Assembly: GCA_017447445.1 (NCBI GenBank)
Contig: JAFSNK010000024.1
Coordinates: forward strand, 30,877-94,876
Direction: 5' to 3'
From: Clostridia bacterium
Lineage (GTDB): Bacteria > Bacillota > Clostridia > Oscillospirales > CAG-382
DNA: 64,000 nt
In this document: positions 1 through 60,610 of the stretch, piece by piece
Position numbering within the stretch: the first letter of the stretch is position 1
Layout of the letters: each line of letters opens with the position of its first letter
Position numbers and translations under genes: made by a program
Notes under the pieces: model-generated
Seen by the model: the letters and a program-made list of their open reading frames with translations, nothing else
Databases searched by the model: none
Told to the model about the DNA's origin: nothing

Positions 1-866
1 GTAAGCTGATTGTGGTCGGTGGCGACGTTCGTCGTGGTGTATATCGGCGCAAGCTCGTGCTGGGCGGGGGCGACCTCGTTGTGTTCGGTCTTCGCCATTA
101 TCCCCAGCTTCCACAGCTCCTCGTTAAGTTCCTCCATATAAGCGGCGACGCGCGGCTTTATCGCGCCGAAGTAGTGGTCGTCCATCTCCTGCCCTTTAGG
201 CGGCTTCGCGCCGAAAAGCGTCCTGCCGCAGAAGCGCAGGTCGGGGCGCGCGTCGTACATTTCTTTTGTAATAAGGAAGTATTCCTGCTCCGGACCGACG
301 GAGGACGACACGCGTTTTACGGTGCGGTTGCCGAAAAGCCGAAGCACGCGCAGCGCCTGCCTGTTCAACGCCTCCATGGAGCGCAGCAGCGGCGTTTTTT
401 TGTCCAGCGCGTGCCCGCCGTAGGAGCAGAACGCGGTGGGGATGCAAAGAGTTTTTCCTTTTATGAACGCGTAGGAGGTCGGGTCCCAGGCGGTGTAGCC
501 CCTCGCCTCGAAAGTCGCTCGGAGGCCGCCCGACGGGAACGAGGAGGCGTCCGGTTCGCCTTTTATAAGCTCCTTGCCGGAAAACTCCATAATAACGCCG
601 CCGTCGGGGGACGGAACGATGAAGCCGTCGTGCTTTTCGGCGGTGATTCCGGTAAGCGGCTGGAACCAGTGCGTGAAATGCGTCGCGCCCTTCGCGACAG
701 CCCAGTCCTTCATTGCGTTGGCGACTGCGTCGGCGACCTCCGGGTCGAGCGCGGCGCCCTCGTCGATAGTGTGTTTGAGCGAAGCGTAGACTTTCGCCGA
801 AAGGACCGATTTCATTATCCTGTCGTCGAACACCATGCTTCCGAAGTAATCCGATACGGTTTTCAT
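1..866 (-). CDS. glnN: Glutamine synthetase type III (GSIII), N-terminal ~288 codons; the gene continues past the left edge
   Basis: Not in the ORF track because it has no stop in the window. Reverse translation from ATG (866-864) gives [95 protein letters not shown], which is typical GSIII. GGAGG lies 7 nt upstream. Confidence 0.85.
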
Positions 867-890
867 AACAAACCTCCGTTTGATTTTTAT

Positions 891-946
891 AAAAACAGAA
901 AAGGCGCCTTGCGTTATAAACAACGTAAAAGACGCCTTTGCCTTTT
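891..946 (-). terminator. glnN leader attenuator 2: terminator hairpin plus competing hexaloop hairpin
   Basis: Minus-sense RNA: GGCGUCUU (936-929) pairs with AAGGCGCC (910-903) and is followed by UUUUCUGUUUUU (902-891). The alternative hairpin AAAAGGC-[AAAGGC]-GUCUUUU (946-927) consumes the terminator 5' arm. Confidence 0.6.
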
Positions 947-959
947 TTTATTTGCCTAT

Positions 960-1012
960 AAAAACGAAAATCGCGCCTTTGACACCACACGGTCCAAAGA
1001 CGCCATTGCCTT
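960..1012 (-). terminator. glnN leader attenuator 1: terminator hairpin plus competing hexaloop hairpin
   Basis: Minus-sense RNA: GCGUCUUUG (1003-995) pairs with CAAAGGCGC (981-973) and is followed by GAUUUUCGUUUUU (972-960). The alternative hairpin AAGGC-[AAUGGC]-GUCUU (1012-997) overlaps the terminator 5' arm. Confidence 0.55.
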
Positions 1013-1022
1013 CAACGCGGTC

Positions 1023-1051
1023 ATTATAAACCCGCGAATACCGTTTGTCAA
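1023..1051 (-). promoter_or_regulatory. Sigma-A type promoter for glnN
   Basis: On the minus strand, TTGACA (1051-1046), a 17-nt spacer and TATAAT (1028-1023). Both hexamers match consensus exactly. Confidence 0.7.
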
Positions 1052-1079
1052 GTCCTTTTTTGATTTTTTAAGATAATTA

Positions 1080-1108
1080 TTGACAAAAGCGGCGCGGAGC
1101 GTTATAAT
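1080..1108 (+). promoter_or_regulatory. Sigma-A type promoter for the glt-glnA-ANTAR operon
   Basis: TTGACA (1080-1085), a 17-nt spacer and TATAAT (1103-1108). Both hexamers match consensus exactly. Confidence 0.7.
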
Positions 1109-1116
1109 GCAGGCAG

Positions 1117-1177
1117 ATGAGCAAAGGCGTTCATTCCCGCGCAGGCGTTCCCTGCGCCGGAAGCGGCGCCTTTTTTG
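1117..1177 (+). promoter_or_regulatory. Leader with an ANTAR-type two-hairpin antiterminator overlapping an intrinsic terminator
   Basis: Hairpin 1 is AUGAGC-[AAAGGC]-GUUCAU (1117-1134). Hairpin 2 is GCGCAGG-CGUUC-CCUGCGC (1139-1157). The terminator is GCGCCG-GAAG-CGGCGC (1154-1169) followed by C UUUUUU G. Hairpin 2 and the terminator share 1154-1157. Confidence 0.6.
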
Positions 1178-1203
1178 TTTTGCGAAAGAAGGTAGAGACC
1201 GAT

Positions 1204-2298
1204 ATGCTTAAAGAAGGAAAAGTAAGGATACCGTCCGGCTGCGCGATAGCCGCCGTGATATCCGTAAACGGCGAACGTATGTCCGGCGAGACCGTTATGC
1301 GGGCGATGGTCCCGATGCACGACAGGTCGAACGGGCTGGGCGGCGGGTTCGCCGGATACGGCATTTACCCGGAGTACAAGGACTTTTACGCTTTTCATAT
1401 GTTCTTCGACTGCCGCGACACGCGCAAGAAGTGCGAAACGTTCCTGAAAGAGCGTTTCGAAGTGGTGAAGGGCGAGGTCATCCCCACGCGCAAGATACCG
1501 GAAATAACCGACGAACCGCTGATATGGCGGTATTTCGCCGCGCCGTTGAAATCGGTGCTCGCCGACCTGCAGTTGGACGAAAAGGAATTCGTCGCGCGGA
1601 CGGTGATGAAGATCAACAGCGAAACGGAGGGCGCCTACGTCTTTTCCGGCGGAAAGAATATGGGCGCGTTCAAGGCGGTGGGGTTCCCGGAGGACGTGGG
1701 CAGGTTTTACCGCCTGGAAGAATACGGCGGTTACAGTTGGACGGCGCACGGGCGTTACCCCACAAACACCCCCGGCTGGTGGGGCGGCGCTCACCCGTTC
1801 ACCCTGCTCGATTATTCGGTGGTGCACAACGGCGAGATATCCTCCTACGACGCGAACCGCAGGTTTATAGAAATGTTCGGCTACAAATGTACTCTGCAGA
1901 CCGATACCGAGGTGATAACCTACATACTCGATTACCTCACGCGCAGGCAGGGGCTTACGCTTGAAGAGGCGGCGAGCGTGACAGCGGCGCCGTTCTGGAG
2001 CACGATAGAGAACAAAAAAGACGAATACGAGAAAGAACGGCTGACCTATTTAAGGACCGTGTTCCCGTCCCTTCTCGTAACGGGGCCGTTTTCGATAGTA
2101 CTCGGCTTCGAAGGCGGGCTGATGGCGCTGAACGACAGATTGAAGCTGCGCTCCATGGTTGTGGGCGAAAAGGGCGACAGGGTGTTTATCGCCAGCGAGG
2201 AAGCCGCGATCCGGGCGATGGAGCCGCAGGCGGAAAACGTATGGGCTCCCGCCGGAGGCGAGCCCGTGATAATCAGAGTCAAGGAGGGCTTATATTGA
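1204..2298 (+). CDS. Glutamate synthase, class-II (Ntn) glutamine amidotransferase domain protein (split GltB, part 1)
   Basis: Starts MLKEGKVRIPSGCAIAAV.., with HNGEISSY.. typical of GATase_2. The ATG at 1204 lies inside track ORF 1117-2298, and the upstream part overlaps the leader terminator. The stop overlaps the next start. Confidence 0.8.
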   Translation: MLKEGKVRIPSGCAIAAVISVNGERMSGETVMRAMVPMHDRSNGLGGGFAGYGIYPEYKDFYAFHMFFDCRDTRKKCETFLKERFEVVKGEVIPTRKIPEITDEPLIWRYFAAPLKSVLADLQLDEKEFVARTVMKINSETEGAYVFSGGKNMGAFKAVGFPEDVGRFYRLEEYGGYSWTAHGRYPTNTPGWWGGAHPFTLLDYSVVHNGEISSYDANRRFIEMFGYKCTLQTDTEVITYILDYLTRRQGLTLEEAASVTAAPFWSTIENKKDEYEKERLTYLRTVFPSLLVTGPFSIVLGFEGGLMALNDRLKLRSMVVGEKGDRVFIASEEAAIRAMEPQAENVWAPAGGEPVIIRVKEGLY

Positions 2299-3803
2299 TG
2301 GGCATCGGATTTATTTATCCCGAATACGAGGTCCTGCGCGACAAAGACCGCTGCGTGAACTGCCGCGTATGCGAGACGCAGTGCGCTAACGGAGTGCATT
2401 CGTTCAGCGCGGAGCGCGGGGCCGTGATAAGCGACGAGACGAAATGCGTGAACTGCCAGAGGTGCGTTTCGTTTTGCCCGACAAGGGCTTTGAAGATAGT
2501 AAAAAGCGCCTGCGCCCTGCGCGAAAACGCGAACTGGCGGAGCGAAACGGTAAAAGAAATATACAAGCAGGCGAACAGCGGCGGGGTGCTGCTTTCCTCG
2601 ATGGGCAACCCGAACCCGCTTCCGGTCTACTGGGACAGGATACTTATAAACGCCTCGCAGGTTACGAACCCGCCGATAGACCCCCTGCGCGAGCCGATGG
2701 AAACAAGGGTGTTCCTCGGGAAAAAACCGGACAGGATAACCCGCGGCGCGGACGGAAGGATAGAATGCCGGCTCGAACCGCAGATAGAGCTTGCGATGCC
2801 CGTGATGTTTTCCGCGATGAGCTACGGCTCGATAAGCTACAACGCGCACGCCTCGCTGGCGCGCGCCGCGACCGAGCTGGGGATACTTTACAACACCGGC
2901 GAGGGAGGTCTGCACGAGGATTTTTACCGGTACGGCAAAAACACCGTGGTGCAGGTCGCCTCCGGGCGCTTCGGCGTTCACGAGGACTATCTTAACGCCG
3001 GAGCGGCGATAGAGATAAAAATGGGGCAGGGCGCGAAGCCGGGCATCGGCGGGCATCTGCCGGGCGCGAAGATAGTCGGCGACGTTTCCCGCACGAGGAT
3101 GATACCCGAGGGCTCGGACGCCATATCCCCCGCCCCGCACCACGATATTTATTCGATAGAAGACCTGCGGCAGCTCGTATATTCGCTTAAAGAGGCGACG
3201 CAGTACAAAAAGCCGGTCATAGTTAAAGTCGCGGCGGTGCACAACATAGCCGCCATAGCAAGCGGCATTGCCCGGAGCGGCGCGGACATAATAGCCATCG
3301 ACGGCTTCCGCGGCGGCACCGGAGCCGCACCGACGAGGATACGCGACAACGTGGGGATACCGATAGAGCTCGCGCTGGCGGCGGTAGACAAACGCCTGCG
3401 CGACGAGGGCATACGCAACAGCGTTTCGCTTATCGCGGGGGGCTCCGTCCGATCGGCGGCGGACGTGGTGAAGGCGATAGCGCTCGGCGCTGACGCCTGC
3501 TATATCGCCACGGCGGCGCTGATCGCGCTCGGGTGCCATTTGTGCCGCACCTGCCAAAGCGGCAAGTGCAGCTGGGGCATCGCCACGCAGCGCCCCGACC
3601 TGGTGAAGCGGCTTGACCCGGAAGCGGGCTGCGAGCGGCTTGTGAACCTTATGACGGCGTGGCGGCACGAGATAATGGAAATGATGGGCGGAATGGGTAT
3701 TAACTCCGTAGAGGCGCTTCGCGGCAACCGGCTTATGCTGCGCGGAGTGGGGCTGAACGAAAAGGAGCTTGGCATACTCGGCATTTCCCACGCCGGGGAA
3801 TGA
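2298..3803 (+). CDS. Glutamate synthase FMN/central domain protein with N-terminal 2x[4Fe-4S] ferredoxin domain (split GltB, part 2)
   Basis: Cys motifs CVNCRVCETQC and CVNCQRCVSFCP are followed by ..MSYGSISYNAH..GEGG..GQGAKPGIGGHLPG..PHHDIYSIEDL. AAGGAGGG lies 9 nt upstream. The ATG overlaps the TGA of the upstream gene. Confidence 0.85.
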   Translation: MGIGFIYPEYEVLRDKDRCVNCRVCETQCANGVHSFSAERGAVISDETKCVNCQRCVSFCPTRALKIVKSACALRENANWRSETVKEIYKQANSGGVLLSSMGNPNPLPVYWDRILINASQVTNPPIDPLREPMETRVFLGKKPDRITRGADGRIECRLEPQIELAMPVMFSAMSYGSISYNAHASLARAATELGILYNTGEGGLHEDFYRYGKNTVVQVASGRFGVHEDYLNAGAAIEIKMGQGAKPGIGGHLPGAKIVGDVSRTRMIPEGSDAISPAPHHDIYSIEDLRQLVYSLKEATQYKKPVIVKVAAVHNIAAIASGIARSGADIIAIDGFRGGTGAAPTRIRDNVGIPIELALAAVDKRLRDEGIRNSVSLIAGGSVRSAADVVKAIALGADACYIATAALIALGCHLCRTCQSGKCSWGIATQRPDLVKRLDPEAGCERLVNLMTAWRHEIMEMMGGMGINSVEALRGNRLMLRGVGLNEKELGILGISHAGE

Positions 3804-3850
3804 CCGTTCCGCAAAGAAAAGTATTGATTTTTGCACGGAGGGACTATATA

Positions 3851-4573
3851 ATGATTACGGTAAACGCGGAAGGTATGGATTTCCGCGCGCTCAACGAAAG
3901 AATACGCGCCGCGGGCGGCGAATGCGCCGTGATAAACTGCGCGGGACAGCGCTTTTTGTGCGCGGGCGCGGCAAGCGGCGAGATCACCGCGGAAGGCGTT
4001 CCCGGGAACGCGCTCGGCGCTTATCTGAACGGCGCGCGCATAACAGTTTTCGGAAATGCGCAGGACGCGGTGGGCGACACGATGAACGACGGAACGATAA
4101 CCGTTCACGGCAATATCGGCGACGCGGCGGGCTACGCGATGCGCGGCGGCTGCATTTTCGTTAAAGGCGACGCCGGCTACCGCGCCGGGATACATATGAA
4201 AGAATACCGGGAAAAAGTCTCGGTAATGGTGATCGGCGGCCGCGCGGGCAGCTTTCTGGGCGAATACCAGGCGGGCGGGCTGATTATCGTGTTCGGGCTG
4301 AACAAAGGCGAAAAGCCGATAGTGGGCAATTTTCCCTGCACCGGGATGCACGGCGGAAAAATGATCCTGCGCTCCGACTGCCGGGACATACGCTTCCCCG
4401 GGCAGGTGTCCGTCCGCCCGGCGGAGGAAGCGGACAAGGCGCTGATAAAAAAATACGCCGCGGAATACTGCCGCCTGTTCGGCGCGGACGAAGCCGCGAT
4501 AACCGATTCGCCTTTTACGGTGATAACGCCCGGAAGCAGCAACCCATATAAACGCCTTTACGTTGCGAATTGA
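3851..4573 (+). CDS. Glutamate synthase GXGXG (alpha-subunit C-terminal) domain protein (split GltB, part 3)
   Basis: Repetitive beta-helix G-x-G pattern (VFGNAQDAVGDTMNDGTITVHGNIGDAAGYAMRGGCIFVKGDAGYRAG). GGAGGG RBS before the ATG at 3851. Confidence 0.8.
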   Translation: MITVNAEGMDFRALNERIRAAGGECAVINCAGQRFLCAGAASGEITAEGVPGNALGAYLNGARITVFGNAQDAVGDTMNDGTITVHGNIGDAAGYAMRGGCIFVKGDAGYRAGIHMKEYREKVSVMVIGGRAGSFLGEYQAGGLIIVFGLNKGEKPIVGNFPCTGMHGGKMILRSDCRDIRFPGQVSVRPAEEADKALIKKYAAEYCRLFGADEAAITDSPFTVITPGSSNPYKRLYVAN

Positions 4574-4625
4574 AGCGTTCGCGTCGCTTTTGCCCCATTA
4601 TGATACACGATAACGGGAGGATATT

Positions 4626-5834
4626 ATGAAATATTCAAAAGAAGAGGTCCTGCAATACGTTTCGGAGGAGGACGTGAAGTTTATCCGTCTTGCCTTCTGC
4701 GACGTTTTCGGGAAACAGAAAAACATTTCGATAATCGCGGAAGAACTGCCGCGCGCCTTCGAGCACGGCATAGCGTTCGACGCCTCGGCGATAAAAGGAT
4801 TCGGCGACGAAACGCATTCCGATCTTTTCCTGCACCCCGATCCGGAAACACTTACCTGGCTGCCCTGGCGCCCGGAGCACGGCAAAGTGGTGCGTATGTT
4901 CTGCCGTATAACCTACCCGGACGGCAGGCCCTTTGAATGCGATACGAGAAGTTTGCTGAAACGCGCCGTCGCGGACGCGTACGAAGCGGGCGTTACTTTT
5001 TATTTCGGCGCCGAGCAGGAGTTTTATCTGTTCGAGCTCGACGATAAGAACGCGCCCACGAAGATCCCCTACGACAACGCCGGATATATGGACATAGCGC
5101 CGGAGGACAAGGGCGAAAACGTCCGCCGGGAGATCTGCCTTACCCTGGAGCAAATGGGCATCCGCCCGGAAAGCTCCCACCACGAGGAGGGCCCCGGGCA
5201 GAACGAGATCGACTTCCGTTATACCGAGGCGCTCGCCGCCGCGGACAACGTTATGACGTTCCAGACCGTGGTGCGTACCGTCGCGCGGCGCAACGGGCTT
5301 TACGCCGATTTTTCGCCCAAACCGCTTGCAAACGCCCCGGGCAACGGATTCCACATAAACTTTTCGGTACGCCCGGACGGCGGCGCGGAAAAGCTTAACG
5401 CCGTTATCGCCGGTATCCTGGAAAAAGCCGCGCCGATGACTCTGTTCCTCAACCCCTGCGAGAACTCTTACGAACGGCTCGGAAGGATGAAAGCCCCGGG
5501 ATACGTTTCCTGGTCCGCGGAGAACCGTTCGCAGCTTATAAGGATACCCGCGGCATCGGGCGAGTTCCGCCGCGCGGAGCTGCGCTCGCCGGATCCGTTC
5601 GCAAACCCGTATATAGCGTTTACGCTTATGATACGCGCCGGGCTATACGGCATGGAAAACGGTCTGACGCTGCCCGAAGCGCTGGATCTGAATCTGTTCA
5701 AAGCCGACGAAAAAACGCTGTCTAAGATCCGCCGGCTTCCGAAATGCCTTGAAGAAGCGAAAAAAGCGGCGGACGACGGTTTTATAAAAGCGTTTATCCC
5801 CGCGCAGATAACGGAGATCTACCGCGCGGAATAA
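4626..5834 (+). CDS. glnA: Glutamine synthetase type I (short form, 402 aa)
   Basis: ..VKFIRLAFCDVFGKQKN.., GAEQEFYLF, SSHHEEGPGQNEIDF and NGFHINFS motifs. GGGAGG RBS. Confidence 0.85.
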   Translation: MKYSKEEVLQYVSEEDVKFIRLAFCDVFGKQKNISIIAEELPRAFEHGIAFDASAIKGFGDETHSDLFLHPDPETLTWLPWRPEHGKVVRMFCRITYPDGRPFECDTRSLLKRAVADAYEAGVTFYFGAEQEFYLFELDDKNAPTKIPYDNAGYMDIAPEDKGENVRREICLTLEQMGIRPESSHHEEGPGQNEIDFRYTEALAAADNVMTFQTVVRTVARRNGLYADFSPKPLANAPGNGFHINFSVRPDGGAEKLNAVIAGILEKAAPMTLFLNPCENSYERLGRMKAPGYVSWSAENRSQLIRIPAASGEFRRAELRSPDPFANPYIAFTLMIRAGLYGMENGLTLPEALDLNLFKADEKTLSKIRRLPKCLEEAKKAADDGFIKAFIPAQITEIYRAE

Positions 5835-5890
5835 CTCCGGGCGGATAAAACAAGCCGGCGCGGCAGGACAGCGAAAGGAGGGAGCAAAGG

Positions 5891-6475
5891 ATGAGTCTGA
5901 AAGAACAAATATACGCCGTTCTGGCGGTTTCCGCCGCGGAAAAATTCAATCAGGCGCTTCCGGATATTTTCACGCCCTCCGTATTCTCGCCGCTGAACTG
6001 CGTTTCCAGCGTGAGCGCCGCCAAACGCGCCGCCGCGGAACGCGATTTCGATTTTATAATAATCAATTCTCCCCTGCCGGACGATTCCGGCATAAGGTTC
6101 GCCATCGACGCCGCCTCCTCCCGCGGGACTGTGGTGCTGTTCCTTTCCCGAGCCGAGCAGTACCCCGACGCGTTCGACAAGCTTGCCGAACACGGGGTGT
6201 TCCTTATGCAGAAGCCGGTCTCCTCGTCCTCGTTCCGGCTCGCCTCCGAATGGCTCATAAGCGCGCGCGAACGAATAAGAAAAACCGAAAAGAAAACGCT
6301 TTCGATAGAAGAAAAAATGAACGAGATACGCATCGTAAACCGCGCGAAGTGGCTTTTGATAAGCGAGCTTAAAATGTCGGAGCCCGACGCACACCGCTAT
6401 ATCGAAAAACAGGCGATGGACCGTTGCGTTTCCAGACGCACTATCGCGGAAGAGATAATAAAAACGTATGAGTAG
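5891..6475 (+). CDS. ANTAR-domain RNA-binding antiterminator with receiver-like N-terminal domain
   Basis: The C-terminus NRAKWLLISELKMSEPDAHRYIEKQAMDRCVSRRTIAEEII is an ANTAR signature. The N-terminal part looks REC-like but reads FIIINSPLPDDSG at the expected phospho-Asp position. AGGAGGGAG RBS. Confidence 0.8.
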   Translation: MSLKEQIYAVLAVSAAEKFNQALPDIFTPSVFSPLNCVSSVSAAKRAAAERDFDFIIINSPLPDDSGIRFAIDAASSRGTVVLFLSRAEQYPDAFDKLAEHGVFLMQKPVSSSSFRLASEWLISARERIRKTEKKTLSIEEKMNEIRIVNRAKWLLISELKMSEPDAHRYIEKQAMDRCVSRRTIAEEIIKTYE

Positions 6476-6554
6476 CTAAAAAAGCAAGGTTGTCTATGGC
6501 TTTTTCATAAATGCAGAATTATAGTAGAATTATCACGCAGTAATATTCATATGT

Positions 6555-6599
6555 AAAAAAATACGAACTCCGGCTTTTCGGCAGGGTTCGTATTTTTTT
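6555..6599. terminator. Bidirectional intrinsic terminator downstream of the ANTAR gene
   Basis: A-run 6555-6560, stem AUACGAAC (6561-6568) / GUUCGUAU (6586-6593), T-run 6594-6599. Confidence 0.7.
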
Positions 6600-6603
6600 C
6601 TGC

Positions 6604-6619
6604 GCGGCTGATGGGACTT
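6604..6619. repeat. 16-nt duplicate of the tRNA-Leu 3' end (att-like direct repeat)
   Basis: GCGGCTGATGGGACTT at 6604-6619 is identical to 6821-6836. That sequence covers the tRNA acceptor 3' strand, the T-stem and part of the T-loop. Confidence 0.7.
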
Positions 6620-6630
6620 CTTGCCTTTTT

Positions 6631-6705
6631 CCCCAAAAATGCAAGCATTTTCGGGGACCCCGTTTTTGCCCCAAAAATGCAAGCATTTTCGGGGACCCCC
6701 GTTCG
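6631..6705. repeat. Two tandem copies (38-bp period) of a palindromic unit
   Basis: CCCCAAAAATGCAAGCATTTTCGGGGACCCC at 6631-6661 and again at 6669-6699 (31/31 identical). The core AAAATGC-AA-GCATTTT is a perfect palindrome. Confidence 0.85.
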
Positions 6706-6781
6706 GGCAAGCCGCGGTCGGCTCTGACAGCCCCCCGGGCTGCCATTCACTACCGACCGTTCAAGTCCCTTCAAATCAACG

Positions 6782-6806
6782 AAAAAAAGACACCCTAACG
6801 GGTATC
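6782..6806 (-). terminator. Intrinsic terminator of tRNA-Leu
   Basis: Minus-sense GAUACCC-GUUA-GGGUGUC followed by UUUUUUU, starting 10 nt after the tRNA CCA end. Confidence 0.7.
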
Positions 6807-6816
6807 TTTTCTTCGT

Positions 6817-6899
6817 TGGTGCGGCTGATGGGACTTGAACCCATACGGTTGCCCACACGCCCCTCAAACGTGCGCGTCTGCCAGTTCCGCCACAGCCGC
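6817..6899 (-). tRNA. tRNA-Leu (anticodon GAG), type II with long variable arm, CCA encoded
   Basis: Manual cloverleaf: acceptor GCGGCUG/CAGCCGC, anticodon stem CACGU/GCGUG with loop UU-GAG-GG, T-arm AUGGG-UUCAAGU-CCCAU, then A-CCA. Confidence 0.9.
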
Positions 6900-6987
6900 A
6901 TCCTTATGCACGCGTTAAGCTCCCGCCATAACGCACGGGAGGCAGGCAAGCCGCAAAGCGGCACGCCGTTCAAAACGCGCAAGAATT

Positions 6988-7015
6988 ATTATACACATAT
7001 ATTTTTGTTTGTCAA
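6988..7015 (-). promoter_or_regulatory. Candidate promoter for tRNA-Leu
   Basis: On the minus strand, TTGACA (7015-7010), a 16-nt spacer and TATAAT (6993-6988). This lies ~80 nt upstream of the mature 5' end. Confidence 0.55.
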
Positions 7016-7033
7016 GCGTTTTTTCTAATTTTT

Positions 7034-7273
7034 TCAGATATCCACAAACACCGTTTCGTCGGAATCCGGGAGCACGCGCGGACGCGGCTCCAGTTTTAAC
7101 AGATCGGGCATAAAGCGGCGGCAGGTGGATACGGCGCGAACAACGCCGTTTTCGTCGCAGACGCAGACTTCCGATTCGCGGATGACCACCGCGTGCTCGC
7201 AATAGGCGCAGACGCGCTCTATCTTATCGTCCTTTTTCAAACAGTTCGCCCCCTTCACCGTTTTATAATACAC
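7034..7273 (-). CDS. Small Cys-rich hypothetical protein (start uncertain)
   Basis: The ORF contains CAYCEH..CVCD..C. The track start is GTG without an SD. A TTG at 7240 is preceded by GAAGGGGG and may be the true start. Confidence 0.45.
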   Translation of the reverse strand: MYYKTVKGANCLKKDDKIERVCAYCEHAVVIRESEVCVCDENGVVRAVSTCRRFMPDLLKLEPRPRVLPDSDETVFVDI

Positions 7274-7289
7274 CCGCGCGGCGGTTTTG

Positions 7290-8210
7290 TCAACCGATAA
7301 AAAACGCCAGAAGCATAAAAATCGCGCAGTTTATCGCTTTGCCCGCCAGGTACGGCCGCATGGAAAGCGCTCCGCCGGTTACCGCGCGCACCTGCACCGC
7401 CACCGAAAGCCCGGTTTGTCCGCAGGCGAACGCGCACAGAACGAACGCGGTTTTATAGGGCAGATTTGCCGCGCAGGCGCAGCCGGAGGAAAACTCCAGC
7501 GCCGATCGGAGCAGCGCCTCCCCCGCCCCGGAAAGCCCGAACAGCGCGACTGTCACCTGCGAAACGGCGCTGAAAAACACCGCGCAGGCGCATATGGCGA
7601 GCATGGAATAAGCGGCTCCGGTTATGGAGGAATACCACGGGCGGTTTGCCGCCGGGAGCGCGGCGGAGCGCGGCGGAGAAGGAGGTTCCCGAAAACGCTT
7701 TCGATCCCGTGGGGAAGGACGCGCTTTTCCGAACATAATGAATTTGAGCAGAACCGCCGTCGCCGCGGTGGAGACAAGCTGGCATACCGTCAGCTTCGCG
7801 CCCGCGTAAATATTTCCGAACAGCCCCGCGCCGACGTAGCCGAGCAGGAACGAAACTCCGGCGTTGTTGGTGAACGCGATAAGATATTCCGCGCGGCGTT
7901 TGTTTACCGCGCCGGAACGGTAAAGCCCGTTTGCCAGCACCGCGCCGACGGGGACTCCGCACAGCGAGCCGAGCAGCCACAGCATAAAGCCGCATCCGGT
8001 CTTTTGCGCCGCGAGCGCCGTTAAACGCATCCCCGCCATTCTGTCGGCAAGCACGATGAACACGAAAAGCGAGGGCACCAGCGTCTGCGCGCAGAAAACC
8101 AGCGCGTTTTTTATCGTTTGCGCCGCCGTTTGCGGCGAAAACAGCAGCCGAACGAACAAAAACAGCACGAATACTTCGGCGGCGAGGGACAGGGCGCGGC
8201 GCAGTTTCAT
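7290..8210 (-). CDS. ylbJ: YlbJ-like sporulation integral membrane protein
   Basis: Polytopic membrane protein starting MKLRRALSLAAEVFVLFLFVRLLFSPQTAAQTIKNALVFCAQTLVPSLFVF... The internal ATG at 8210 was chosen. It lies next to divergent yqfC/yqfD. Confidence 0.55.
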   Translation of the reverse strand: MKLRRALSLAAEVFVLFLFVRLLFSPQTAAQTIKNALVFCAQTLVPSLFVFIVLADRMAGMRLTALAAQKTGCGFMLWLLGSLCGVPVGAVLANGLYRSGAVNKRRAEYLIAFTNNAGVSFLLGYVGAGLFGNIYAGAKLTVCQLVSTAATAVLLKFIMFGKARPSPRDRKRFREPPSPPRSAALPAANRPWYSSITGAAYSMLAICACAVFFSAVSQVTVALFGLSGAGEALLRSALEFSSGCACAANLPYKTAFVLCAFACGQTGLSVAVQVRAVTGGALSMRPYLAGKAINCAIFMLLAFFIG

Positions 8211-60488: not shown

Positions 60489-60520
60489 GCAATTGTGTCG
60501 TTTTCACAGGTAAAACGGGG

Positions 60521-60610
60521 CATTACCCACTTTGCCTTTACGAACAACAATATCAGTTTATAATTAATCGTGCAATCGAAATCCTCGCCGTGTGCGATGA
60601 ATTGAAATGA
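60521..60610 (+). pseudogene. Remnant of an hsdS C-terminal conserved region
   Basis: Translates ..PLCLYEQQYQFIINRAIEILAVCDELK*, compared with the hsdS end PPLAEQQRIVDRVNELLAVCDKLK*. At DNA level 60582-60615 matches 59506-59539 at 32/34 positions. Confidence 0.65.

Follow-up and report, generated by a model that had tools for sequence, protein, structure and literature searches.

Background

ANTAR-target RNAs have been defined as two tandem hexaloop hairpins with a terminator overlapping the second (Ramesh et al. 2012, PMC3369931). The consensus sequences of the two hairpins, P1 and P2, read SYAC-AAHGRH-GUDB and RRGY-AAHGDV-GCYY (Figure S2 of that work); AAAGGC is the P2 loop of both nasF and eutA, and the action of EutV requires A at loop position 1 (A1), G at loop position 4 (G4) and both closing pairs (PMC3369931). 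In the crystal structure of EutV with RNA, G4 points out of the loop, and an aromatic residue of the ANTAR domain stacks against it (PMC8934654). Each EutV binding site holds one hexaloop, the minimal binding unit (2022, PMC8934654), and the authors of the structure expected single-hexaloop sites mainly where the timing of the polymerase is not limiting, and urged a bioinformatic study (PMC8934654). Here we describe leaders with one such hexaloop per terminator. They lie in the 337-nt intergenic stretch 867-1203 that separates two diverging transcription units, glnN and a glt-glnA-ANTAR operon, in a 64-kb window (the whole stretch of DNA analysed, whose numbering is used throughout) from a Clostridia bacterium, contig JAFSNK010000024.1.

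Antitermination of glutamine synthetase (GS) and glutamate synthase (GOGAT) genes by ANTAR proteins in Clostridia is already known as a general principle. For NitR of C. saccharobutylicum, ANTAR control of GS/GOGAT genes is documented genetically. Such control has been suggested for C. thermocellum (Clo1313_2030-2036), and sites were predicted in 2012 at GS/GOGAT/ANTAR operons of Desulforudis, Carboxydothermus, Alkaliphilus, Desulfitobacterium, C. lentocellum and others (Ramesh 2012 Table S2, PMC3369931). The published GS/GOGAT/amtB sites of other Clostridia were modelled as dual hairpins, whereas the sites described here have a single hairpin. A 2025 review gives every ANTAR target as a dual hairpin and does not treat the clostridial nitrogen system. 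In the ANTAR literature examined, outside which the original NitR paper falls, there is no description of the single-hairpin rule, the two stem classes, the tandem glnN units or the gdhA/purA/guaA/pyrG regulon reported below. The system is a conserved variant that fails one defining feature of ANTAR targets (the dual hexaloop) and has a distinctive wiring.

Results and discussion

Three switches built on single hexaloop hairpins

The stretch 867-1203 carries three units, one in the glt leader and two in tandem in the glnN leader. In all three an antiterminator hairpin and an intrinsic terminator overlap, and the overlap involves the sole hairpin, including its loop. The two structures are mutually exclusive, they are conserved and covary in related genomes, they stand before nitrogen-assimilation genes, and the loop is like that of ANTAR targets. 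The name that suits them best is single-hexaloop ANTAR-type antiterminators: the putative recognition hairpin, loop included, is itself the 5' arm of the terminator. We consider it probable (roughly 0.7) that the units are protein-dependent transcription attenuators of a nitrogen-assimilation regulon, with the operon's own ANTAR protein as their reader. A preliminary description, made from the sequence alone, had at its core the proposal of three terminator/antiterminator switches on one shared A1/G4 hexaloop hairpin; a survey of 80 loci supports that core and much strengthens it. The elements are these:

1080-1108, plus strand: sigma-70 promoter of the glt-glnA-ANTAR operon (-35 at 1080-1085, -10 at 1103-1108), TTGACA-17-TATAAT, 12/12
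1117-1134, plus strand: class A antiterminator hairpin AUGAGC-AAAGGC-GUUCAU, loop 1123-1128, 6 bp, at or near the transcript 5' end
1123-1173, plus strand: intrinsic terminator of the glt leader, a long hairpin (U-run 1171-1181), from the minimum free energy (MFE) fold
1051-1023, minus strand: sigma-70 promoter of glnN (-35 at 1051-1046, -10 at 1028-1023), TTGACA-17-TATAAT, 12/12
1013-996, minus strand: class B antiterminator hairpin 1, GAAGGC-AAUGGC-GUCUUU, loop 1007-1002, 6 bp
1007-969, minus strand: stem of terminator 1 of the glnN leader, core 1003-973, interrupted U-run 971-959, from folding and a covariance model (CM R2)
945-928, minus strand: class B antiterminator hairpin 2, AAAGGC-AAAGGC-GUCUUU, loop 939-934, 6 bp
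939-900, minus strand: stem of terminator 2 of the glnN leader, inner hairpin 925-912, U-run 902-891, from folding and CM R2

The two back-to-back consensus promoters, the minus-strand terminators with their U-runs and the three upstream hexaloop hairpins that share bases with terminator 5' arms are all present as first reported. A terminator on the plus strand had been placed at 1154-1177; one does exist there, but the true MFE hairpin spans 1123-1173, and the GC stem 1154-1169 is just a sub-optimal alternative. This long hairpin consists of a lower stem (1123-1131 with 1165-1173), a middle stem (1134-1137 with 1159-1162) and a tip hairpin (1139-1157). It pairs AAAGGCGUU with GGCGCCUUU, and its 5' arm begins at the loop base A1. 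All three leader terminators have a GC-rich stem directly before a U-run, the hallmark of intrinsic (Rho-independent) termination.

Folding favours the terminator in each case. The glt leader has an MFE of -31.5 kcal/mol, against -21.8 with the hexaloop hairpin forced; the corresponding values are -19.7 and -9.9 kcal/mol for glnN unit 1, and -17.8 and -5.7 kcal/mol for unit 2. Folding z-scores are -2.9 for the plus leader and -5.1 for the minus leader, with 0 of 200 shuffles folding equally well for either. CM R2, which was made from relatives' units only, scores the two glnN units at 41.9 bits (E 8e-8) and 42.3 bits (E 6e-8), against just 15.8 bits on the antisense strand, and finds no further significant match over the 64-kb window. 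A weak match at 60508-60539 (minus strand) was inspected and rejected as a unit, for it has no hairpin pairing.

The same units in related Clostridia

A search with the GATase subunit yields 80 Clostridia loci at 78-86% protein identity, among them Oscillospiraceae, Acutalibacteraceae, Lachnospiraceae, Ruminococcus albus, Massiliimalia, Merdimmobilis and Christensenellales. The class A 18-mer, AUGAGCAAAGGCGUUCAT, occurs upstream of the GATase gene in 78 of the 80 with at most 4 substitutions (exact in most), and directly 3' of a TTGACA/TATAAT promoter. The class B hairpin, (A/G/U)AAGGC-AANG(G/A)C-GUCUU(U/C/A), is found in 130 units before glnN and several other genes. A generic hairpin pattern run over 1.0 Mb gives 221 matches, compared with 10 in the reversed sequence and 3-8 in local shuffles. 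The tandem layout of single-hairpin units before glnN had been called atypical; it proves to be conserved, since 32 of 65 glnN leaders have two units (modal spacing 69 nt) and 29 have one.

The two hairpin classes have the loop and the top pairs in common, and their stems differ by three compensatory pairs. Neither class shows any change in its two top pairs (G.U and C-G) or at A1, A2 and G4 of the loop; likewise, across 146 distinct units from relatives, A7, A8 and G10 never change and loop positions 3, 5 and 6 vary. Within class B only the bottom pair, 1:18, covaries (AU 51, GU 11, GC 6, UA 3). Pairing is seen in 99.4% of class A cells and 97.1% of class B cells, percentages that are not independent because the hairpin instances had been chosen for pairing.

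Among the units of relatives, 71 of class A and 96 of class B have the terminator as their MFE fold, with mean energies of -28.7 and -21.4 kcal/mol respectively. In 53 of the 71 and 52 of the 96, the first base of the terminator 5' arm is the loop base A1; in most remaining units the arm starts 1-3 bases past A1, and it continues through the hairpin 3' arm. Forcing the small hairpin, worth about -4 kcal/mol alone, costs 12.4-12.5 kcal/mol on average. We tested the terminator helix on three alignments: two mini-alignments whose anchor was the base pairing with G4, and a plain MAFFT alignment of whole units. The cells are paired in 93.3% (class A), 90.9% and 93.5% of cases, as against 34-65% with the partner slid, and the numbers of cells changed on both sides (28, 102 and 55) compare with 6.6, 28.6 and 15.5 in shuffles, none of 500 shuffles reaching the observed count. 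The compensatory changes that the preliminary description had proposed to look for in orthologous leaders are therefore there, with double changes above shuffles. Variation at loop positions 3, 5 and 6 is tracked by the terminator 3' arm (AAAGAC/GUCUUU, AAGGGC/GCCCUU, AAAGGA/UCCUUU), which means that the loop bases belong to the terminator. The frequent G.U pairs, together with the strand-specific CM R2 scores (42 versus 15.8 bits), show that the structure acts as sense-strand RNA.

Class B units also precede gdhA (26 units), an amtB-PII fusion, purA, guaA, pyrG and a gene for a PPDK_N protein in relatives (L055 6698-, L079 2322-, L062 2817-, L070 1124-, L073 2568-, L045 6832-), and this gene set fits a nitrogen regulon. 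In some genomes gdhA is inserted between the glt operon and glnN. The purA/guaA/pyrG units have the loop AAUGGU, and in them the terminator pairs with the hairpin 5' arm as well.

Could such leaders work without any factor, as constitutive or nucleoside triphosphate-sensitive pause or termination sites whose 5' hairpins only stabilise the mRNA 5' end? 5' stem-loops are able to protect mRNAs, the hairpins here lie at extreme transcript 5' ends, and the terminator is always the thermodynamically favoured fold. A stabiliser, however, needs neither an invariant A1/G4 hexaloop nor an exact terminator overlap in more than 200 units before linked nitrogen genes, and units that are internal, such as the second of glnN and those following gdhA, lie away from 5' ends. 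We regard this explanation as very unlikely.

The repeated CAAWGGCG motif

The motif CAAWGGCG, in which three of these loops are embedded, occurs 16 times in the whole window (6.9 expected) and four times within the 337-nt region, where 0.064 would be expected from the remainder of the window (Poisson P ~6e-7). The clustering that the preliminary description had pointed out thus stands for the four copies, but the extra CAAAGGCG / GCAAGGCG copies, which it had counted along with them, are not additional binding loops. They sit in terminator 3' arms as the complement of GCGUCUUUG, G.U pairs allowed, and the relatives show free variation in this arm (AAAGACGC, GGAGGCGC etc.).

Recurrence of the motif around two divergent promoters is what a DNA operator for a transcription factor, with CAAAGGCG as its site, would produce. 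Alternatively, the AUG of the class A hairpin might open a regulatory leader peptide (MSKGVH...): hairpin position 1 is A, G or U, each giving a start codon, and in the window the open reading frame (ORF) from this AUG (1117) is in frame with the GATase gene, which it would extend from 364 to 393 aa. Both ideas are extremely improbable. Every copy of the motif lies on the sense strand, past the start sites, and forms part of a helix that contains G.U pairs and shows compensatory changes; strand specificity, G.U pairs and covariation together rule out an operator. As to the peptide, the mini-ORF is 6-205 codons long in relatives, unconserved past codon 6 and in frame with the gene in just 11 of 79 loci, and a start codon is missing from class B hairpins. 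Since the frame from the hairpin AUG is closed after 6-205 codons in relatives, the extension in the window is accidental and the GATase start is at 1204.

Fit to ANTAR targets and to known systems

The window loops AAAGGC, AAUGGC and AAAGGC are hexanucleotides with A1 and G4 and fit AAHGRH/AAHGDV, in agreement with the resemblance to the ANTAR feature first reported. The hairpin tops GAGC-AAAGGC-GUUC and AGGC-AAAGGC-GUCU agree with the published P2 consensus at 13 of 14 positions. Stems of at least 3 bp with conserved closing pairs are characteristic of these targets, and those here have 6 bp, topped by C-G and G.U.

The units have several things in common with the dual-hexaloop targets of EutV, NasR and AmiR: an A1/G4 hexaloop (AAHGRC here), a C-G closing pair followed by G-U or A-U, short stems, mutual exclusion with a terminator, an ANTAR protein encoded at the locus, and nitrogen-related target genes. 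They differ in having one hexaloop hairpin per terminator and not two. In canonical targets, moreover, only the P2 3' arm overlaps the terminator, whereas here the hexaloop hairpin itself does, loop bases included. Finally, there is no upstream recruitment hairpin, the transcript starting at the hairpin. The hairpin begins 8-9 nt past each -10 element, so both transcripts start essentially with it, and the distance from a -10-like hexamer to the hairpin has a mode of 8 nt in relatives as well. A gap of about 8 nt between the -10 element and the hexaloop hairpin leaves no space for an upstream hairpin.

One set of published sites comes close. At Desulfitobacterium hafniense matches 057 and 095 (GS and glutamate-synthase-like genes), P2 is GAGC-AAAGGC-GCUC and P1 is degenerate or gapped (PMC3369931). 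That P2 is nearly identical to our class A hairpin, and the very poor P1 hairpins suggest that the single-hairpin rule extends there; judged by their sequences, matches 057 and 095 may be single-hexaloop units like those described here.

A close precedent is the glnA-nitR-gltAB system of C. saccharobutylicum. It shares with this locus an ANTAR regulator that adjoins glnA and is co-expressed with GS/GOGAT, and a proposed relief of termination under nitrogen limitation; an antisense RNA component is not evident here. In logic alone, the leaders recall the BglG/SacY (ribonucleic antiterminator, RAT) systems, where one protein-stabilised hairpin overlaps a terminator, as would be the case here, and tandem riboswitch or T-box attenuators, where serial units sharpen a response. 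The RNA motif and the protein fold are unrelated to those of either. A scan of positions 1-8000 against Rfam 15 at E<=10 gives no family match in 867-1203, including the glutamine riboswitch (glnA RNA) and the T-box.

The ANTAR protein as candidate reader

The gene at 5891-6475 closes the operon, as first reported, and encodes a 194-aa protein with an ANTAR domain (PF03861, E 7e-16). An ANTAR gene directly follows glnA in 52 related loci and is absent from 5 loci of sufficient length. Across the 52 orthologues the ANTAR domain is the best-conserved portion of the protein. A hairpin top that matches the consensus, a conserved ANTAR domain and a gene inside the regulated operon make this protein by far the best candidate for reading the hairpins; binding is what these sequence features would predict. 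No NCBIfam model matches the protein. Its closest solved structures are Rv1626, EutV and AmiR, and it has a His at the position of the aromatic residue that stacks on G4, like AmiR.

The receiver-like domain does not look like that of a two-component response regulator, which would have an acceptor Asp, an acidic pocket and a partner kinase. Its receiver (REC) match, at 20.9 bits, is under the Pfam cut-off of 30.2. The phospho-acceptor Asp position is occupied by Asn in 51 of 53 aligned proteins (the 52 orthologues and the window's own), the window protein reading IINSPLP where Rv1626 has IMDVKMP, and the N-terminal acidic pair is missing in the alignment. No partner kinase gene was found beside the ANTAR gene, the next feature being a tRNA. 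By its sequence, then, the domain is a pseudo-receiver, as in AmiR. Like Pseudomonas aeruginosa AmiR (pseudo-receiver plus ANTAR, sequestered by AmiC), the protein combines the lack of an acceptor Asp and of a kinase with the His at the aromatic position; unlike AmiR, it has no AmiC-like gene adjacent, its neighbour being glnA. With the acceptor Asp replaced and no partner kinase, activity is probably set by a protein partner or ligand and not by phosphorylation, and that input probably reports nitrogen status. The invariable neighbour glnA invites the speculation that the partner is GS.

Points on the other side

Several observations weigh against the reading of the units as attenuators served by this protein through single hexaloops. 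EutV antitermination has been published as needing a dimer and both hairpins (PMC3369931, PMC8934654), yet a second A1/G4 hexaloop hairpin occurs in none of 164 second hairpins, whose loops are 3-13 nt long with no conserved sequence. A search for a second ANTAR hairpin in the terminator tips, 5' of the hexaloop hairpin and 3' of the terminator gave none. CM R1, a dual-hairpin covariance model built from 30 published targets and run with filters off on the window, gives no match in 867-1203 at E<=10, and its best match in the 80 loci (more than 200 units) has E 0.24. The scan with an ANTAR-target model that had been proposed as a check thus finds no dual architecture here but does recover the single hairpin. 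The dual-hexaloop layout is absent here, and the other structural features of ANTAR targets are present, along with a nearby ANTAR gene. In addition, the pairing of the hexaloop hairpin is backed mainly by conservation and not by covariation inside a class. The presence of gdhA in the regulon complicates matters, in that a simple "on under nitrogen limitation" model does not predict it. Lastly, five loci (L048, L058, L060, L061 and L079) retain the hairpins with no ANTAR gene within the fetched locus. In these five the glutamate synthase genes are not followed by a glnA-ANTAR pair, and two of the five are Ruminococcus albus (strain AR67, L058, and the metagenome-assembled genome L060).

The first of these points would be answered if the canonical two-site mechanism operated after all, with the second contact supplied by the terminator tip, the second glnN unit or the freed AAAGGCG-like strand of the 3' arm. 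Forcing the hexaloop hairpin does leave a second hairpin adjoining it with a 0-nt linker, and half of the glnN leaders hold two hexaloop hairpins at that modal spacing of 69 nt. However, the tip loops are unconserved, the glt leaders and 29 glnN leaders are single-unit, every tandem unit has its own complete terminator, and the changes in the terminator 3' arm (AAAGACGC, GGAGGCGC) are those of a simple complement, with no loop motif conserved in it. We therefore hold a second site to be unlikely. In particular, the glt leader had been credited with a two-hairpin layout, and this does not hold up: its second hairpin is the terminator tip, which is variable and never an A1/G4 hexaloop in relatives, and so is not an ANTAR P2.

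The five loci raise the question of whether another trans-factor, such as a GS- or PII-associated RNA-binding protein or a small RNA (sRNA), reads the switch, leaving the ANTAR gene a bystander or acting elsewhere. The stem sequence, too, is conserved beyond the needs of loop recognition. Such strong stem conservation is nevertheless accounted for by a three-way constraint, in which the 5' arm, the 3' arm and the terminator 3' arm must all match, and the close fit of loop and closing pairs to the ANTAR consensus, with an ANTAR gene within the regulated operon in 52 loci, makes another reader quite improbable.

The tip of the glt terminator, GCGCAGG-CGUUC-CCUGCGC (1139-1157), includes CAGGCGUUC, which is similar to CAAAGGCGUUC of the hexaloop hairpin. 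Among relatives, a tip of the CAGGCGUUC type is common to L014 only, and the likeness may be a partial duplication or a coincidence.

Genes and other features of the locus

The genes around the leaders are as follows:

3-866, minus strand: 5' part of glnN, encoding the N-terminus of a type III glutamine synthetase (GSIII_N domain, E 1e-79)
877-873 and 866-864, minus strand: ribosome-binding site GGAGG and start codon of glnN, from the sequence
1204-2298, plus strand: GATase_2 gene of a split glutamate synthase
2241-3803, plus strand: Glu_synthase and Fer4 gene of the split glutamate synthase
3800-4573, plus strand: GXGXG gene of the split glutamate synthase
4626-5834, plus strand: glnA, type I glutamine synthetase (GSI)
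5891-6475, plus strand: ANTAR protein gene, last of the operon

The relatives keep the order GATase, Glu_synthase, an additional gene in most loci, GXGXG, glnA and ANTAR, with glnN as the usual divergent neighbour. The additional gene, of about 1.6 kb, stands between Glu_synthase and GXGXG (e.g. L001 9597-11267); the window, where these two genes meet at 3803/3800, and about 14 loci do without it. Promoter-like sites in the region number 3, against 0.7 expected. Downstream of the ANTAR gene, at 6478-6597 on the plus strand, a sub-threshold match to the Bacillus sRNA ncr1015 (32.6 bits against a gathering score of 60) is probably merely the operon terminator. The tRNA that follows, at 6820-6899 on the minus strand, has a long variable arm.

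Proposed mechanism

We infer, from the features above, the ANTAR protein as reader, a response that is on under nitrogen limitation, and the nature of the input signal. In such a scheme, the weak 6-bp hairpin, with its A-A-N-G-R-C loop closed by C-G and G.U, would be transcribed first, at the 5' end of the RNA, and the adjacent tip hairpin would form second. The terminator 3' arm would emerge 30-45 nt later, lengthen the tip helix downward and displace the hairpin 5' arm. Where no protein is bound, this strand would invade the hairpin and RNA polymerase would stop short of glnN or of the glt-glnA operon. An active ANTAR dimer, on the other hand, would grip the hexaloop and the pairs at the top of the stem and block strand invasion; the lower 9-13 bp of the terminator would then not form, a harmless tip hairpin would be left, and the polymerase would read through. 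Two serial units before glnN would multiply the off-state and sharpen the response. Since the regulated operon ends with the ANTAR gene itself, the arrangement implies positive autoregulation.

Conclusions

Taken across the clade of gut and rumen Clostridia (Oscillospirales, Lachnospirales, Christensenellales), the data raise a broader possibility, which we put forward tentatively and at somewhat less than even odds: the whole ammonium-assimilation regulon may be under one-hexaloop ANTAR attenuators, governed by a phosphorylation-independent pseudo-receiver regulator with a nitrogen-status partner, possibly the glutamine synthetase encoded upstream. Its scope, equally tentative, would take in GSI, GSIII, GOGAT, glutamate dehydrogenase (GDH) and AmtB-PII, with PurA, GuaA and PyrG in some genomes.

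ANTAR regulators are widespread and few are understood, and their RNA targets have been sought with two-hexaloop models. If the proposal is true, the requirement for "successive binding" to a dual hexaloop is not general, and searches with dual-hairpin models have systematically missed a major class of ANTAR targets. The 2022 EutV-RNA paper asked how widely single-hexaloop sites are used (PMC8934654). The leaders described here offer a natural and deeply conserved case on which to study this: a single hexaloop hairpin is built straight into a terminator, and over 200 sequence variants already chart the base changes that are tolerated. The outline of a nitrogen regulon also emerges for rumen and gut Clostridia, which are abundant and mostly uncultured, and attention is drawn to an orphan pseudo-receiver regulator.

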